DNA of 5,423 nt. Origin: a virus (taxonomy: Duplodnaviria; Heunggongvirae; Uroviricota; Caudoviricetes). The stretch covers positions 1 to 5,423 of IMG/VR virus record IMGVR_UViG_2802429220_000009; one strand, 5' to 3'. Under the pieces are notes generated by a model. That model saw nothing but the letters and a program-made list of their open reading frames with translations. It made no database searches and was not told the DNA's origin. A program made the position numbers and the translations under genes. Within the stretch, counting starts at the first letter, position 1. Each line of letters begins with the position of its first letter. Positions 1-1,980 of the stretch are shown here, one piece after another.

Positions 1-480
1 CTGGGCTTTTTCCATCCAGAGCTGCATGTAGCAAAGGAGGATGATTTCCTCGGCTGTGAATTGTGGCTGAATCTGCGGCTGCTGTTCGGTTGGTGCTGTT
101 TTTCCCTGGCTGAAATAGCAGTCTTCCAGTTTTTCGAATACTTCCCACGCCTGATCGGTTTCGAGCATTTTTGCGTGACGGGCTGCGCCGCGTTCTGTCC
201 AGAGTATGAGCGAGCGGGCTTTCGGGGAAATTTGTAACCCTCTTAAAGATGGTTGCAAATTTTGTGAGTTACTTAAAGTAACCCGCAAATTTTTCAACTC
301 ATCACCAACAACCTTGAAAAAGTGTTTACCCTCAACAAAACGCTCGGAATTACGGGTGTAATTTACTTTGATGTTGTTGATCTCGGTACAGTAAAGCTGT
401 GCCAGTAACTCGGTAGTGATAACGGGAATTTGGTTGTGTGTAATTGGGGAAAGAGTTTCGACAGAAATCTGAGTGGCCAT
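1..480 (-). CDS. ORF6N-domain phage antirepressor-like protein, 5' part (160 codons; C-terminus lies beyond the window)
   Basis: Minus-strand ATG at 480..478 preceded by GGAG about 8 nt upstream; open frame with no stop through position 1, absent from the track because it runs off the window. Translation MATQISVETLSPITHNQIPVITTELLAQLYCTEINNIKVNYTRNSERFVEGKHFFKVVGDELKNL...SLILWTERGAARHAKMLETDQAWEVFEKLEDCYF matches my recollection of the ORF6N N-terminal domain of phage antirepressors (family assignment from memory). Confidence 0.65.
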   Translation of the reverse strand, partial: MATQISVETLSPITHNQIPVITTELLAQLYCTEINNIKVNYTRNSERFVEGKHFFKVVGDELKNLRVTLSNSQNLQPSLRGLQISPKARSLILWTERGAARHAKMLETDQAWEVFEKLEDCYFSQGKTAPTEQQPQIQPQFTAEEIILLCYMQLWMEKAQ

Positions 481-637
481 AACGATAACTCCGTACATTT
501 GGACATTATCGCCACCGTCAGGTGCTAATCATCGTGGTGGCGAACTGTGCGGGGTTAGCACTACCGGGTACGGAAACCGGCGAGCCTTTCGGCTCCCCCA
601 CACAGCCCGCCATAAATCGCGAATGTGACTGTGCAAA

Positions 638-672
638 CGATATGAAAAAAGACGCGGGCGCGTCTCATATCG
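638..672 (-). terminator. Intrinsic terminator on the minus strand (GC hairpin plus U6), nested in an outer inverted repeat CGATATG/CATATCG
   Basis: Minus-strand RNA reads CGAUAUG-A-GACGCGCCCGCGUC-UUUUUU-CAUAUCG: a 5-bp GC-rich stem GACGC/GCGUC with a 4-nt loop, immediately followed by six U (plus-strand A6 at 645-650). Outer arms 638-644 and 666-672 are exact reverse complements. Confidence 0.5.
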
Positions 673-721
673 CTCCGTAAACATCCGGGGTGCTAATCCC
701 GACGCCAGATTTTGCTGGCGT
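645..721 (-). ncRNA. Candidate ~75-nt structured small transcript or leader (promoter to intrinsic terminator); function unknown
   Basis: Bounded by the minus-strand promoter at 728-757 and the terminator at 638-672. Predicted 5' hairpin CGCCAG-CAAAAU-CUGGCG (plus 703-720), an internal GGG/CCC stem, and the 3' terminator hairpin. No plausible ORF: the only ATG-initiated frame reads through the terminator. Confidence 0.3.
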
Positions 722-727
722 GCGAAG

Positions 728-757
728 AATATAATCCCGGATACGTGACGTTGTCAA
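728..757 (-). promoter_or_regulatory. Sigma70-like promoter on the minus strand (-35 TTGACA, 18-bp spacer, -10 TATATT)
   Basis: Reverse complement of 752-757 is a perfect TTGACA; reverse complement of 728-733 is TATATT (5 of 6 to TATAAT). Predicted start near 720, pointing at the terminator at 638-672 and the antirepressor-like gene beyond. A plus-strand TATAAT (730-735) overlaps it. Confidence 0.35.
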
Positions 758-767
758 ACTGATGGCA

Positions 768-796
768 TTGCAGATCCCTACACAATGTAATACTAT
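768..796 (+). promoter_or_regulatory. Putative promoter of the toxin-antitoxin operon (-35 TTGCAG, 17-bp spacer, -10 TACTAT), flanked by short inverted-repeat arms
   Basis: TTGCAG at 768-773 and TACTAT at 791-796 with a 17-bp spacer, about 30 nt upstream of the toxin ATG at 825. Inverted-repeat arms AATGTA (784-789) and TACATT (803-808) bracket the -10, as expected for an autoregulated TA operator. Confidence 0.4.
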
Positions 797-824
797 GTGT
801 TATACATTAATAACGGAACAAAAA

Positions 825-1196
825 ATGCGCATTTTTAAAAACGCCTGGTTTGAGCGATTTGCACGCAAAAACAAAATATCCGACCAGTCACTGCGCGAAA
901 TTGTTAAACAGGCTGATAACGGGCTTATCTCAGCAAACCTGGGTAACGGCGTTATCAAGCAACGTCTGCCACGAGTCGGTGGCGGCAAATCTGGCGGTTA
1001 TCGCACAATCATTTTCTATCGCGTCGGCACAAGGGCCTTTTTCGTATATGCATACGCAAAAAATGAACGTGAAAATATAACCGCTACTGAGGAAAGTGCA
1101 TTTCGGAAGGCGGCTCCTCACGTACTCAATCTAACAGATGAACAACTGGCACAACTGATTCTACAGGGTCAGTTTACGGAGGTACCCAATGAGTAA
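825..1196 (+). CDS. Type II toxin, RelE/ParE-superfamily (HigB-like, toxin-first operon), 123 aa
   Basis: Track ORF 762..1196 trimmed to the internal ATG at 825 (MRIFKNAWFERF...), because the predicted -10 lies inside the 5' extension. Contains the motif RVGGGKSGGYRTIIFYRVG, which I recall as typical of RelE/ParE-like toxins paired with HTH antitoxins. The stop TAA 1194-1196 overlaps the next gene's start in ATGAGTAA. Confidence 0.8.
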   Translation: MRIFKNAWFERFARKNKISDQSLREIVKQADNGLISANLGNGVIKQRLPRVGGGKSGGYRTIIFYRVGTRAFFVYAYAKNERENITATEESAFRKAAPHVLNLTDEQLAQLILQGQFTEVPNE

Positions 1197-1506
1197 AAAT
1201 TACCGCAGTGATGCGCTTGCATCCGTACATGAAATGATGGAATCGCTTCATGATATCGGCGCAGTAACGAAACAGACTATGCGAGAATTCGATGAAACTT
1301 GTCTCCAGCCAGCGCCGGTAATGTCTCCGGAAAGGATCCGTGCACTGCGCGAACGAGAGCATCTGTCTCAACCTGTTTTTGCCAGATACCTCAACGTCAG
1401 TAAAAACCTGATATCAGACTGGGAACGTGGTGTAAAACGGCCGGGAGGTGCCGCTCTTCGCCTTCTTTCAGTCGTAGAGAAAAACGGGATACAGGTAATA
1501 TCATGA
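1189..1506 (+). CDS. HTH (XRE-type) DNA-binding antitoxin of the type II TA pair, 105 aa
   Basis: ATG at 1189 with GGAGG 5 nt upstream; 8-nt overlap with the toxin gene. Helix-turn-helix signature in the C-terminal half (SQPVFARYLNVSKNLISDWERGVKRPGGAALRLL). Size and toxin-first order fit a HigA-like antitoxin. Confidence 0.85.
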   Translation: MSKNYRSDALASVHEMMESLHDIGAVTKQTMREFDETCLQPAPVMSPERIRALREREHLSQPVFARYLNVSKNLISDWERGVKRPGGAALRLLSVVEKNGIQVIS

Positions 1507-1522
1507 TACTCCAATACAACAA

Positions 1523-1540
1523 AACCCGCCGAAGCGGGTT
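1523..1540. terminator. Intrinsic terminator between the convergent TA operon and hok; U-tract on the minus strand (hok mRNA 3' end), weaker for the plus strand
   Basis: Stem AACCCGC/GCGGGTT with a 4-nt loop. On the minus strand the loop is the stable tetraloop UUCG and the stem is followed by UUUUGUUGUAUU; on the plus strand the loop is CGAA and no U-tract follows. Confidence 0.55.
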
Positions 1541-1608
1541 AAGTGCGGGTGCGTTGAGGATGCCTGACACATCAGAGGTGGCGAGGGATTTCTCCCTCGC
1601 CTGGTCTC

Positions 1609-1764
1609 TTACTCCTCAGGTTCGTAAGCTGTGAAGACAGTGACCTCCGTCTGGCCGGTTCGGATTCGTACCTCGCAGAGGTCTTTCCTCGTTACCAGTG
1701 CCGTCACAATGACGGTAATACAGATGACGATCAGGGCGACTAACATCGCCTTTTGCTGCTTCAT
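1609..1764 (-). CDS. hok: Hok/Gef-family type I membrane toxin, 51 aa
   Basis: Internal ATG of track ORF 1609..1821 at 1764..1762 with SD AAGGAGA 7 nt upstream. Product MKQQKAMLVALIVICITVIVTALVTRKDLCEVRIRTGQTEVTVFTAYEPEE is near-identical to E. coli HokD/HokC as I recall them (single transmembrane helix, conserved Cys). Confidence 0.9.
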   Translation of the reverse strand: MKQQKAMLVALIVICITVIVTALVTRKDLCEVRIRTGQTEVTVFTAYEPEE

Positions 1765-1821
1765 AGCCTGCTTCTCCTTGCCTTTCGGCGCGTAAGAGGC
1801 TAACCTACATGTGTCTAGCAT
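1609..1821 (-). CDS. mok: Mok-like in-frame N-terminally extended reading frame (70 aa) coupling hok translation
   Basis: ATG at 1821..1819 in frame with hok, adding MLDTCRLASYAPKGKEKQA; this resembles the MokC N-terminus as I recall it (MLNTCR...KEKRAMKQ). GAGG lies 8 nt upstream. Confidence 0.55.
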   Translation of the reverse strand: MLDTCRLASYAPKGKEKQAMKQQKAMLVALIVICITVIVTALVTRKDLCEVRIRTGQTEVTVFTAYEPEE

Positions 1822-1980
1822 AAAATTGGCCTCAGATTAATGTTAGGCGTCTTGCAGGACGCGTAATGTTAACTGGGGCTTTTCTCTGTCTGCCTTACGG
1901 TGGCATGCCCGAGGCAGACAGCCTCAAGCACCCGCAGCAATTCTACTTAACTCTCGCTTTACCGCAAACCGTTTTTACCC

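Follow-up and report, generated by a model that had tools for sequence, protein, structure and literature searches.

Upstream of an antirepressor-like gene in the window, by which we mean the whole 5,423-nt stretch of viral DNA that was analysed, a promoter and a terminator on the minus strand enclose a short structured interval. The question addressed here was what this unit encodes and on which partner its product acts. In our judgement, the unit probably specifies the IsrK-type a1b1 RNA of an immI-like (P1 c4-type) RNA switch, which controls the prophage antirepressor. The unit belongs to the already described IsrK family and is not a new element. The features of the locus are compiled in Table 1.

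Table 1. Features of the IsrK-type and C4-type RNA module in the window
Feature	Position	Strand	Remark
-35 hexamer TTGACA	752..757	-	best of six promoter-like sites in the window
-10 hexamer TATATT	728..733	-	18-nt spacer to -35 TTGACA
IsrK-family small RNA (a1b1 RNA), 77 nt, putatively from A721 to the end of U6	645..721	-	Rfam RF01394
Hairpin 1, 7-bp stem, conserved loop CAAAAU	702..721	-	fold and compensatory changes
Hairpin 2, motif a1 in the loop	686..701	-	fold and covariation analysis
Motif a1 UUAGCAC	690..696	-	same as a2; complement of C4 a'
Motif b1 UACGGAG	673..679	-	mimics b2, which contains the Shine-Dalgarno sequence
Intrinsic terminator, 7-bp GC-rich stem (4 G-C), 4-nt loop, U6	645..666	-	hairpin scan and fold
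C4-type antisense RNA, 85 nt	533..617	-	Rfam RF01695
C4 loop b' UCCGUAC	568..574	-	pairs with b1 and b2
C4 single-stranded a' GUGCUAA	555..561	-	exact complement of a1 and a2
Target site a2 UUAGCAC, antirepressor mRNA leader	522..528	-	exact copy of a1; exact complement of a'
Target site b2 GUACGGAG	489..496	-	overlaps Shine-Dalgarno GGAG 492..489
Antirepressor-like gene, 5' part, ORF6N and P22AR_C	1..480	-	ATG 480..478; runs past the window edge

A preliminary description of this DNA had proposed a perfect -35 hexamer with a good -10 on the minus strand, a GC hairpin with a U6 terminator, a stable 5' hairpin and an interval devoid of any convincing ORF. All of these elements were recovered. 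The promoter (757..728) is of the sigma-70 type and matches the consensus in 11 of 12 positions, and the terminator at 666..645 consists of a hairpin (666..649) followed by T6 (650..645). Two 5' hairpins were found (721..702 and 701..686), the first of them with compensatory changes. Between 637 and 757, no convincing ORF was detected; the only candidates, of 30–51 codons, have no Shine-Dalgarno sequence and cross hypervariable RNA motifs. The promoter-to-terminator unit itself thus stands as described, whereas its functional partner, a C4 antisense RNA at 617..533, had been overlooked.

The interval 721..645 matched the Rfam family isrK (RF01394) over model positions 1–77 of 77 with 73.5 bits (gathering 50; E = 6.5e-15). 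The family c4-a1b1 (RF03163) scored 46.1 bits over 734..682, which is 0.6 below its gathering threshold of 46.7. The same interval was predicted to fold into hairpin 1, hairpin 2 and the terminator, with a minimum free energy (MFE) of -26.5 kcal/mol. Elsewhere in the window, a second, weak isrK match (1600..1519) stayed below threshold with 27.8 bits. It overlaps the 3' terminator of a hok mRNA and carries no a/b motifs, and was set aside as terminator-driven similarity.

Promoter-like and terminator-like sequences might lie next to each other by chance and yield no transcript of their own. Consensus scans found about as many such sites in shuffled sequence as in the window (4.4 against 6 promoter-like and 6.9 against 10 terminator-like sites), and the z-score of the 721..645 fold against dinucleotide shuffles was a modest -2.08. 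A full-length Rfam match above threshold speaks against this explanation, as does the experimental detection of the homologous RNA in Salmonella. Furthermore, dozens of diverged loci keep promoter, hairpins and terminator in place and show compensatory changes. Similarity to other phages begins at the -35 hexamer or 14 nt downstream of it, and TTGAC(A/G/C) was found again at the equivalent position in most homologous loci. At a fixed distance from hairpin 1, a sigma-70 match of ≥8/12 was present in 75 of 82 non-identical homologous loci, compared to 4 of 82 after the upstream sequence had been shuffled. Of all upstream blocks, the -10 region is conserved best across these loci (majority fraction 0.74), with TATATT or TATAGT at a fixed offset in 46 of 94 unique loci. 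Over 67 distinct sequences, 99.8% of the cells of the hairpin 1 stem were paired and six of its seven pairs had changed on both sides, with a covariation score that was attained in none of 500 shuffles. Of 95 unique loci, 83 retained a hairpin with a T-run at about +66..+83. A chance pair, to which we assign a negligible probability, was ruled out on the grounds of Rfam score, conserved position and covariation.

Rfam family C4 (RF01695) matched 617..533 over its full length with 78 bits (gathering 45), and the predicted fold (MFE -49 kcal/mol, z-score -5.75) was equalled in stability by none of 200 shuffles. It comprises a long closing stem and two inner hairpins and leaves a' and b' exposed. 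At its 3' side, the sequence carries a tRNA-like GCCACCA (543..537). The C4 RNA of P1 is matured from a precursor by RNase P. Together, the IsrK-type and C4-type RNA genes and the target sites fill the interval between a RelE-type toxin gene and the antirepressor gene. The latter could be assessed in a full-length copy (L001), which matched the Pfam domains ORF6N (70 bits) and P22_AR_C (83.5 bits). The protein is 61% identical to AnrP of the Salmonella prophage Gifsy-1 over 153 aa.

The short RNA is complementary to C4 at a1:a' (7 nt) and b1:b' (6 nt). Motifs a1 and a2 are identical (UUAGCAC) and both are exactly complementary to a' (GUGCUAA). Loop b' (UCCGUAC) pairs with UACGGA of b1 over six contiguous bases and with GUACGGA of b2 over seven; the ATG at 480 follows the b2/Shine-Dalgarno site at a distance of 8 nt. 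When duplex scoring was limited to the exposed segment of C4, the duplex with IsrK reached -28.0 kcal/mol (4 of 500 shuffles were as good) and that with the leader -22.4 kcal/mol (20 of 500). Energies calculated with duplexfold for the whole RNAs (-53.8 and -36.0 kcal/mol) were discarded, as this procedure is blind to intramolecular structure.

Comparison across loci strengthened these assignments. The loci were gathered with a pattern that fixes part of the hairpin 1 loop and the a1 skeleton, and they represent the IsrK-like branch of the family only; in 83 of 94 unique loci, the 7-mer of the a motif (10 variants) was matched by an exact reverse complement within C4 and recurred unchanged 30–35 nt further on. 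For 45 distinct specificities, the longest complement between b' and b1 averaged 7.07 nt within a locus and 3.18 nt across loci, and that between b' and b2 averaged 8.00 and 3.71 nt, respectively. The position of b1 is hypervariable among loci, yet b1 is complementary to the C4 RNA of its own locus. The three motif copies co-vary over these 45 specificities, which were derived from viral contigs; at least 45 a/b specificities occur among 120 contigs, and a and b motifs reassort. In nearly all loci, the antirepressor gene's own Shine-Dalgarno sequence is embedded in b2. The elements, their complementarities and the three-way covariation across loci were thereby established at the level of sequence comparison.

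These data also bear on the view that the short RNA is a free-standing, trans-acting sRNA, its main targets being host or other phage mRNAs and its link to the downstream gene being incidental. Such an RNA would have its own promoter and terminator, as is the case here. The Rfam family is named as an Hfq-binding RNA, and Salmonella lysogens express IsrK at high levels under every condition tested. However, the action of IsrK in Gifsy-1 is Hfq-independent (PMC4825925), and in the loci examined the isrK-type unit is always followed by a C4 RNA and an antirepressor-type gene. Because the variable parts of the small RNA track the C4 RNA and the leader of the same locus, a local partner is indicated, and we regard the free-standing alternative as very improbable.

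The closest experimentally studied relative is the isrK-orf45-anrP region of Gifsy-1. There, isrK (79.3 bits), C4 (69 bits) and c4-a1b1 (48.1 bits) were found in the same order, upstream of anrP. Common to both loci are identical nucleotides 1–27 of the short RNA, including the whole of hairpin 1 (nt 1–20), its length of 77 nt, its own promoter and an intrinsic terminator. Both also have a C4-type RNA followed by a2/b2 and an ORF6N antirepressor gene, and in both the central part of the sRNA shows complementarity to the RNA that follows. The specificity motifs differ: the a motif is UUAGCAC in the window and UUGGCGU in Gifsy-1, and the b motif is UACGGA and UCACCG, respectively. Moreover, the window protein has an extra P22AR_C domain compared to AnrP. 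The window module is located upstream of Q, with a second (KilAC) antirepressor gene after it; the Gifsy-1 module is located downstream of antQ, with isrJ after it. Counting from the homologous A, the published Gifsy-1 mutations G28, G31, A107, C159 and C162 all fall on the expected bases. Because these numbers fit, A721 is taken as the probable counterpart of the mapped 5' end of Gifsy-1 IsrK, and the transcript of the window locus would accordingly run from there to the end of the terminator.

Experiments on Gifsy-1 revealed that anrP is transcribed from the isrK promoter and that this mRNA is untranslated (Hershko-Shalev et al., 2016; PMC4825925). Short IsrK and the read-through mRNA originate from one promoter, and a processed RNA of ~80 nt, STnc1160, also needs the isrK promoter (PMC4825925). 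Supplied in trans, IsrK increased anrP translation 139-fold, while the a1 variants G28A and G31A were inactive in trans (PMC4825925). The preliminary description had left open whether the unit is a standalone small RNA or a terminator-containing leader of the ORF6N gene; in the Gifsy-1 homologue, both hold at once.

From these observations, the following mechanism is proposed. The sigma-70 promoter (757..728) would start transcription at about A721, and most transcripts would stop at the terminator (666..645), giving a 77-nt RNA that would present a1, in the hairpin 2 loop, and b1, shortly after it. A fraction of the transcripts would read through into C4 (617..533), a2 (528..522), b2 (496..489) and the ORF6N gene (ATG 480). 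C4 is probably excised as a stable RNA of ~80 nt, and its exposed a' and b' would pair with a2 and b2. This pairing would block translation of the antirepressor because b2 contains the Shine-Dalgarno sequence. As both motifs are also present in the short RNA, it may compete for C4, either free or embedded in the read-through transcript, and relieve the block. Antirepressor output would then be set by the ratio of terminated to read-through transcripts, and specificity would be determined by the a/b sequences, as it is in P1/P7 heteroimmunity. In this scheme, trans-activation by the short RNA and the ~80-nt processed RNA are carried over from the Gifsy-1 experiments by analogy, and repression by C4 at the ribosome-binding site from work on P1; for the window locus, we infer the direction of regulation, the processing of C4 and the partial read-through.

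The authors of the Gifsy-1 study favour a different mechanism, namely a structural switch in cis with translational coupling via orf45 (PMC4825925). Applied unchanged to the window, the read-through RNA would be locked in cis, and the short RNA would free the ribosome-binding site of the small ORF, which is coupled to the antirepressor start. Mutational and native-gel data support this in Gifsy-1 (PMC4825925). In the window, an AUG at the equivalent position of the C4 5' stem (613..611) opens an ORF of 31 codons (613..518). Furthermore, when cut to 180 nt, the read-through RNA adopts the same cis pairing (a1:a'/b1:b'), with an energy near that of the C4 fold; at 190 nt, however, the C4 fold is the MFE structure. 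Since the 180-nt RNA also forms the cis structure, cis and trans effects are inseparable by sequence.

The coupling itself fared worse. The window ORF ends inside the a2 region at 518, 38 nt short of the ATG at 480. It therefore lacks the AUGA stop-start overlap with the antirepressor gene that is seen in Gifsy-1; such an overlap is characteristic of the Gifsy-1 mechanism and has no place in the model of the RNA family. Across the 45 specificities, the C4-internal ORF comprises 8–49 codons or is fused to the downstream gene, and only about five have an overlapping stop-start. With length and frame varying in this way, a conserved orf45-like coupling ORF was rejected. The Gifsy-1 authors themselves noted that orf45's nucleotide sequence is conserved while its amino acid sequence is not (PMC4825925). 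The Shine-Dalgarno sequence that the antirepressor gene has within b2 in nearly all loci likewise argues against dependence on a coupled ORF. We therefore consider the unchanged Gifsy-1 model unlikely, although it is the strongest of the alternatives.

Some of the Gifsy-1 mutations can be read in terms of C4. C159U and C162U, which derepress translation (PMC4825925), map to C4 a'. The double mutants reached 224 and 327, compared to a wild-type basal level of 4, and did not return to basal (PMC4825925). Such levels are expected if pairing between a' and a2 stays weakened. In its simple form, the decoy model nevertheless leaves some Gifsy-1 results unexplained: in cis, G28A and G31A in a1 raise basal anrP translation, and growth arrest mediated by IsrK was not prevented, but even enhanced, when the orf45/STnc1160 region was expressed constitutively (PMC4825925). 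As a tentative generalization, to which we give somewhat less than an even chance, IsrK-type RNAs, C4 RNAs and a2b2 leaders may constitute many orthogonal three-part "lock, key and decoy" systems that set the specificity of antirepressor immunity in lambdoid and other prophages. Gifsy-1 orf45 would then be C4 itself (STnc1160), and trans-activation by IsrK would be titration of C4 and not the unmasking of a small ORF.

The immI region of P1 and P7 supports the assignment of the window locus to this type of switch. Its order, a1 b1 - c4 - a2 b2 - icd - ant, corresponds to the order of elements in the window. Both have a two-hairpin a1b1 leader, a C4 fold with a'/b' and control of an antirepressor, and in both b2 overlaps the Shine-Dalgarno sequence of the first downstream ORF. 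In P1, where a1, b1, c4, a2 and b2 are annotated, C4 scored 68.8, c4-a1b1 51 and isrK 35.1 bits, the last being below threshold. The P1 leader also carries a hairpin and a U-run; unlike IsrK, however, it is not known as a separate terminated sRNA. The P1 C4 RNA represses at the ribosome-binding site. Regulation of ant in P1 is indirect, through the small icd ORF, whereas in the window b2 and its Shine-Dalgarno sequence directly precede the antirepressor ORF and no icd-like ORF was found between the target sites and the antirepressor gene. Additionally, P1 is a plasmid prophage with two promoters, one of them with a C1 operator; the prophage studied here is lambdoid and has no P1 C1 system, and the antirepressors are unrelated in domain content. 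The idea of competition between a1b1 and a2b2 stems from the original P1 work, as cited by Weinberg et al. (2010). In the part of the literature covered, no paper equating IsrK with the C4 a1b1 leader was found; the only paper found that contains both, a 2025 review, treats them separately.

The CI RNA of P4 immunity provides a further parallel. There too, a small RNA processed from a leader pairs with complementary copies upstream and downstream, and seqA was called a structural homologue of IsrK by the Gifsy-1 authors (PMC4825925). The P4 system acts by premature transcription termination of replication genes and not by occlusion of an antirepressor ribosome-binding site. Transferred to the window, C4 would act on nascent a1b1 and alter termination at 666..645, so that the unit would serve as an autoregulatory attenuator, with the short RNA being chiefly a by-product. 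The analogy with P4 CI RNA and seqA/seqC was raised by the Gifsy-1 authors, and IsrK in trans increased an anrP transcriptional fusion 8-fold (PMC4825925). The a1b1 motifs are closely followed by the terminator. Such an 8-fold effect on transcription, however, can also follow from translation-dependent protection against Rho. For P1 icd-ant, this protection is known. Because b1 (679..673) is located outside the terminator stem (666..649), pairing at b1 would not directly make or break the terminator hairpin. Conservation and co-variation of a2/b2 at the Shine-Dalgarno sequence would not be required by termination control alone, and in Gifsy-1 constitutive STnc1160 did not reduce the effect of IsrK (PMC4825925). 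Termination control of this kind appears improbable.

Two suggestions of the preliminary description had to be abandoned. Classical attenuation does not agree with the position of b1 outside the terminator stem, and RNA-RNA pairing at the ribosome-binding site is proposed in its place. The analogy to Q-dependent late regulation (pR'/tR') of lambdoid phages did not hold either. Lambda 6S RNA and StxS (pR'-tR') are similar to the window unit in having a constitutive promoter near an intrinsic terminator and in giving a short, abundant RNA in lysogens. They are encoded directly downstream of Q, and Q antitermination allows transcription to read through them. By contrast, the window unit lies in the nin region of a lambdoid prophage, ~2.6 kb upstream of Q on the same strand; the full prophage copy has two antirepressor genes, DUF1364, rusA and ninH between the unit and Q. 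The window unit precedes antirepressor genes and is homologous to IsrK and the P1 immI a1b1 leader.

The isrK-C4 module was found in 423 of 5,426 complete E. coli genomes, including Stx phages, and the RefSeq annotation of E. coli genomes lacks both RNA genes. The record of phage APSE-7, on the other hand, annotates isrK, C4 and a'/b' upstream of a Bro-N antirepressor gene. For the window, the main value of this work is annotation, namely two RNA genes, IsrK-type and C4-type, with their target sites; the element is of an already described kind and captured by a curated Rfam family. The comparative loci represent a ready-made set of natural orthogonal RNA triads. Our data suggest that the orf45 model of Gifsy-1 should be re-examined in view of the embedded C4 RNA. 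If true, the orthogonal-triad reading would merge the Salmonella IsrK and P1 c4 literatures, which were still separate in the 2025 review. The IsrK-type and C4-type RNAs probably gate the antirepressor and may thereby influence prophage induction; this bears on the biology of Shiga-toxin phages.

The whole window was scanned against Rfam, which gave four relevant matches (see table). Because the isrK model matched the 77-nt stretch starting at A721, the minus-strand unit at 637-757 is an IsrK-family RNA. A minus-strand promoter, a structured transcript of ~75 nt and a terminator had been claimed in the preliminary description, and these are confirmed by the isrK score, by a conserved promoter and by covariation in hairpin 1. 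The promoter (757..728) showed an 11/12 match and ranked first among the window's six promoter-like sites; the 77-nt stretch begins ~7 nt 3' of TATATT and folds as three elements. Its fold was only modestly better than that of shuffled sequences (z = -2.08), and consensus scans for promoter or terminator sites across the window did not rise above background, so that the case from the single sequence was suggestive, not strong.

Features in the window (Rfam gathering scores in brackets)
Feature	Position	Strand	Basis or remark
-35 TTGACA	757..752	-	sigma-70 type promoter scan
c4-a1b1 (RF03163)	734..682	-	46.1 bits (46.7)
-10 TATATT	733..728	-	18-nt spacer from TTGACA
isrK (RF01394)	721..645	-	73.5 bits (50)
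Hairpin 1	721..702	-	fold of 77-nt stretch
Hairpin 2	701..686	-	fold of 77-nt stretch
a1 UUAGCAC	696..690	-	small RNA, loop of hairpin 2
b1 UACGGAG	679..673	-	small RNA, between hairpin 2 and terminator
GC-rich terminator hairpin	666..649	-	fold; then U6 at 650..645
C4 antisense RNA (RF01695)	617..533	-	78 bits (45)
b' UCCGUAC	574..568	-	C4, exposed in hairpin loop
a' GUGCUAA	561..555	-	C4, exposed in adjoining single strand
a2 UUAGCAC	528..522	-	downstream of C4
b2 GUACGGAG	496..489	-	downstream of C4
RelE-family toxin	825..1196	+	Pfam RelE 158 bits; transcribed away from IsrK promoter
HTH antitoxin	1189..1506	+	transcribed away from IsrK promoter
sok (RF01794)	1933..1759	-	115.2 bits (59)

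The C4 RNA, located between terminator and antirepressor gene, folds very stably (MFE -49 kcal/mol, z = -5.75). Its 3' end, GCCACCA, resembles a tRNA acceptor end. C4 of phage P1 is processed by RNase P and, by analogy, the 3' end of the window C4 fits such processing.

The pairing motifs were named following the P1 nomenclature. Motif b2 includes the Shine-Dalgarno sequence GGAG, 8 nt ahead of ATG 480. Judged by the positions and sequences of the motifs, the small RNA is a copy of the C4-binding site of the mRNA, including its Shine-Dalgarno-like end. Motifs a1 and b1 are complementary to a' and b' of C4. The duplex of the exposed C4 segment with IsrK reached -28.0 kcal/mol (equalled by 4 of 500 shuffled targets), and that with the leader -22.4 kcal/mol (20 of 500). 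Before the terminator stem, CGAUAUGA (672..665, minus strand) is the perfect complement of UCAUAUCG (644..637, minus strand) after the U-run, so that a read-through RNA could fold into an extended helix from which the U-run bulges. At least five of the nine nucleotides 3' of the U-run were predicted to be paired in 81 of 82 homologous loci, compared to 51 of 82 with shuffled tails. A role of this helix (637-672, minus strand) in processing or stability is possible.

The conserved skeleton was turned into a search pattern, GCAAAATC-N6-CGGG-N-TT-N-GCA, which picked out 120 viral contigs with 94-95 unique versions. As the pattern fixes the hairpin 1 loop and part of a1, the sample represents the IsrK-like branch only; all features counted (a/b matches, hairpin 1, promoter, and T-run) were left free by it. 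The a-motif 7-mer was present in 10 variants. For 83 of the 94 unique versions, its reverse complement occurred without mismatch 110-175 nt downstream, and the same 83 carried an exact second copy of the 7-mer 30-35 nt past that. Although hypervariable, the b' loop of C4 fits its own locus far better than others (45 distinct a/b specificities). The mean longest b'-b1 complement was 7.07 nt at the own locus and 3.18 nt at other loci, with complements of at least 7 nt in 67% and 1%, respectively; the corresponding values for b'-b2 were 8.00 and 3.71 nt, and 84% and 2.8%. Nearly every locus has b2 merging into GGAG or GAGG close 5' of the ATG. Pairing in hairpin 1 reached 99.8%, and 6 of 7 pairs had changed on both sides; no shuffle out of 500 attained this covariation, and slid registers dropped to 27-47% paired. 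Promoter matches of at least 8/12 at a constant offset occurred in 75 of 82 loci (4 of 82 with shuffled upstream sequence), and most loci had a T-run at +66..+83. The elements, complementarities and covariation are thus plain from the sequences themselves.

In some of the viral contigs, a second IsrK-type module lies 0.5-1.8 kb from the first (L034, 4164-5095; L085, 6553-8400; and L091). The pair in L034 differs in a/b specificity (a = UUAGCAG and UUCGCAU), suggesting antirepressor switches in tandem that are keyed independently of each other.

The Salmonella prophage Gifsy-1 (NC_010392) showed the same three matches in the same order 5' of anrP (isrK 79.3, C4 69, and c4-a1b1 48.1 bits). Published mutations were placed by counting from the homologous RNA start: the up-mutations G28A and G31A map to a1, and C159U and C162U to a' of C4. 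The reading frame orf45 has as its first AUG (A107) the AUGG that is conserved in the C4 5' stem, and spans C4, a2, and b2 up to an AUGA overlap with anrP. The C4 match (34131-34214 of the Gifsy-1 sequence, L123) lies on the published region of orf45 and STnc1160, a processed RNA of ~80 nt (Hershko-Shalev et al., 2016; PMC4825925). From this mapping, STnc1160 coincides with the C4 RNA. The isrK promoter of Gifsy-1 yields an untranslated read-through mRNA; IsrK supplied in trans increases the translation of anrP 139-fold and its transcription 8-fold, independently of Hfq, and a1 mutants are inactive in trans (PMC4825925).

The annotated order in P1 immI is a1, b1, c4, a2, b2, icd, ant, and the leader scored 51 bits with the c4-a1b1 model and a sub-threshold 35.1 bits with isrK. 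Weinberg et al. (2010) described the two-hairpin a1b1 motif and credit the idea of competition between a1b1 and a2b2 for C4 to the original P1 work. The P1 leader (L124, 4231-4312), annotated as target sites only, ends in a hairpin and U-run, GCGGUAUUUUU, within the isrK match; P1 may therefore likewise make a short terminated a1b1 RNA. The public record of APSE-7 already has isrK, C4, a', and b' annotated 5' of a Bro-N antirepressor.

We propose that C4 would cover the antirepressor ribosome-binding site by pairing of a' with a2 and of b' with b2. The terminated 77-nt RNA would be a target mimic: by tying up a'/b', be it in C4 that is free or in the read-through RNA, it would permit antirepressor translation. 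Read-through of the terminator would be the source of C4 and mRNA alike. The direction of these effects is borrowed from the homologues, and we infer C4 processing and partial read-through at the window locus. A pure decoy model is at odds with two Gifsy-1 results: a1 mutations in cis raised basal translation, and STnc1160 expressed constitutively failed to counteract IsrK (PMC4825925). The double mutants G28A/C162U and G31A/C159U gave 224 and 327 compared to a wild-type basal value of 4 (PMC4825925), which weakened a'-a2 pairing predicts, unlike a restored cis helix. Upon folding, window and Gifsy-1 RNAs cut at 180 nt adopted the cis a1:a'/b1:b' structure, and at 190 nt the C4 fold won in both; at 250 nt, the window RNA kept the C4 fold and Gifsy-1 returned to the cis structure. 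Both structures are thus available in these predictions. Translational coupling of the orf45 type, a step of the Gifsy-1 model, is unlikely at the window locus: the positional equivalent (613..518, minus strand) opens at the AUGG conserved in the C4 5' stem, but has 31 codons and stops inside a2, 38 nt before ATG 480. C4-internal reading frames are unconserved across the family (8-49 codons, or fused to the downstream gene). A P4-like role of C4 in transcription termination is unlikely; b1 does not overlap the terminator stem.

The gene starting at ATG 480 encodes an ORF6N and P22AR_C protein whose first 153 residues share 61% identity with AnrP, the antirepressor-like protein encoded 3' of IsrK in Gifsy-1 (PMC4825925). 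A 98.4% identical copy resides inside a lambdoid prophage of an E. coli chromosome. There, the module is preceded by cI, cro, cII, O, a DnaC-type P, DUF1627, DUF977, DUF551, hok/sok, and, on the opposite strand, the RelE/HTH toxin-antitoxin pair; ORF6N and KilAC antirepressors, DUF1364, rusA, ninH, and Q follow. The site is the nin region, ~2.6 kb upstream of Q, which rules out the analogy with pR'-tR' late leader RNAs. The earlier interpretation, a small RNA or leader controlling the ORF6N gene, was right in outline, but overlooked the C4 partner and drew the wrong analogy to lambdoid late regulation.

Of 5,426 complete E. coli genomes, 423 carry the module; it also occurs in 302 phage records, mainly of Stx-converting phages. 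In the phage records, homology sets in at the -35 (query position 44) or 14 nt past it (position 58), so that the toxin-antitoxin pair (762-1506, plus strand) is a mosaic insertion beside the module boundary. A possible operator of this pair is an AT-rich imperfect palindrome at ~778-812. Further upstream, a hok/sok type I toxin-antitoxin module occupies 1609-1933 (minus strand), with a hokD-like ORF ending at 1609. A weak second isrK match (1600..1519, minus strand; 27.8 bits, under the gathering score of 50) lacks a/b motifs and runs across a strong terminator-like hairpin (1540..1523) where the hok transcript has its 3' end; this match probably reflects terminator similarity only.

As a member of a described, curated family with an experimentally studied homologue, the 77-nt element is already known. 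No RNA gene, be it for IsrK or C4, is annotated at the locus in RefSeq copies of the prophage, and the absence of these RNAs from E. coli and Stx-phage genome annotation is one point of remaining interest. Another is the equation of IsrK with the a1b1 leader and of orf45/STnc1160 with C4, which, like the placement of C159U/C162U in a', is stated in none of the searchable papers. Beyond these, the a/b specificities are of interest for their scale and orthogonality.
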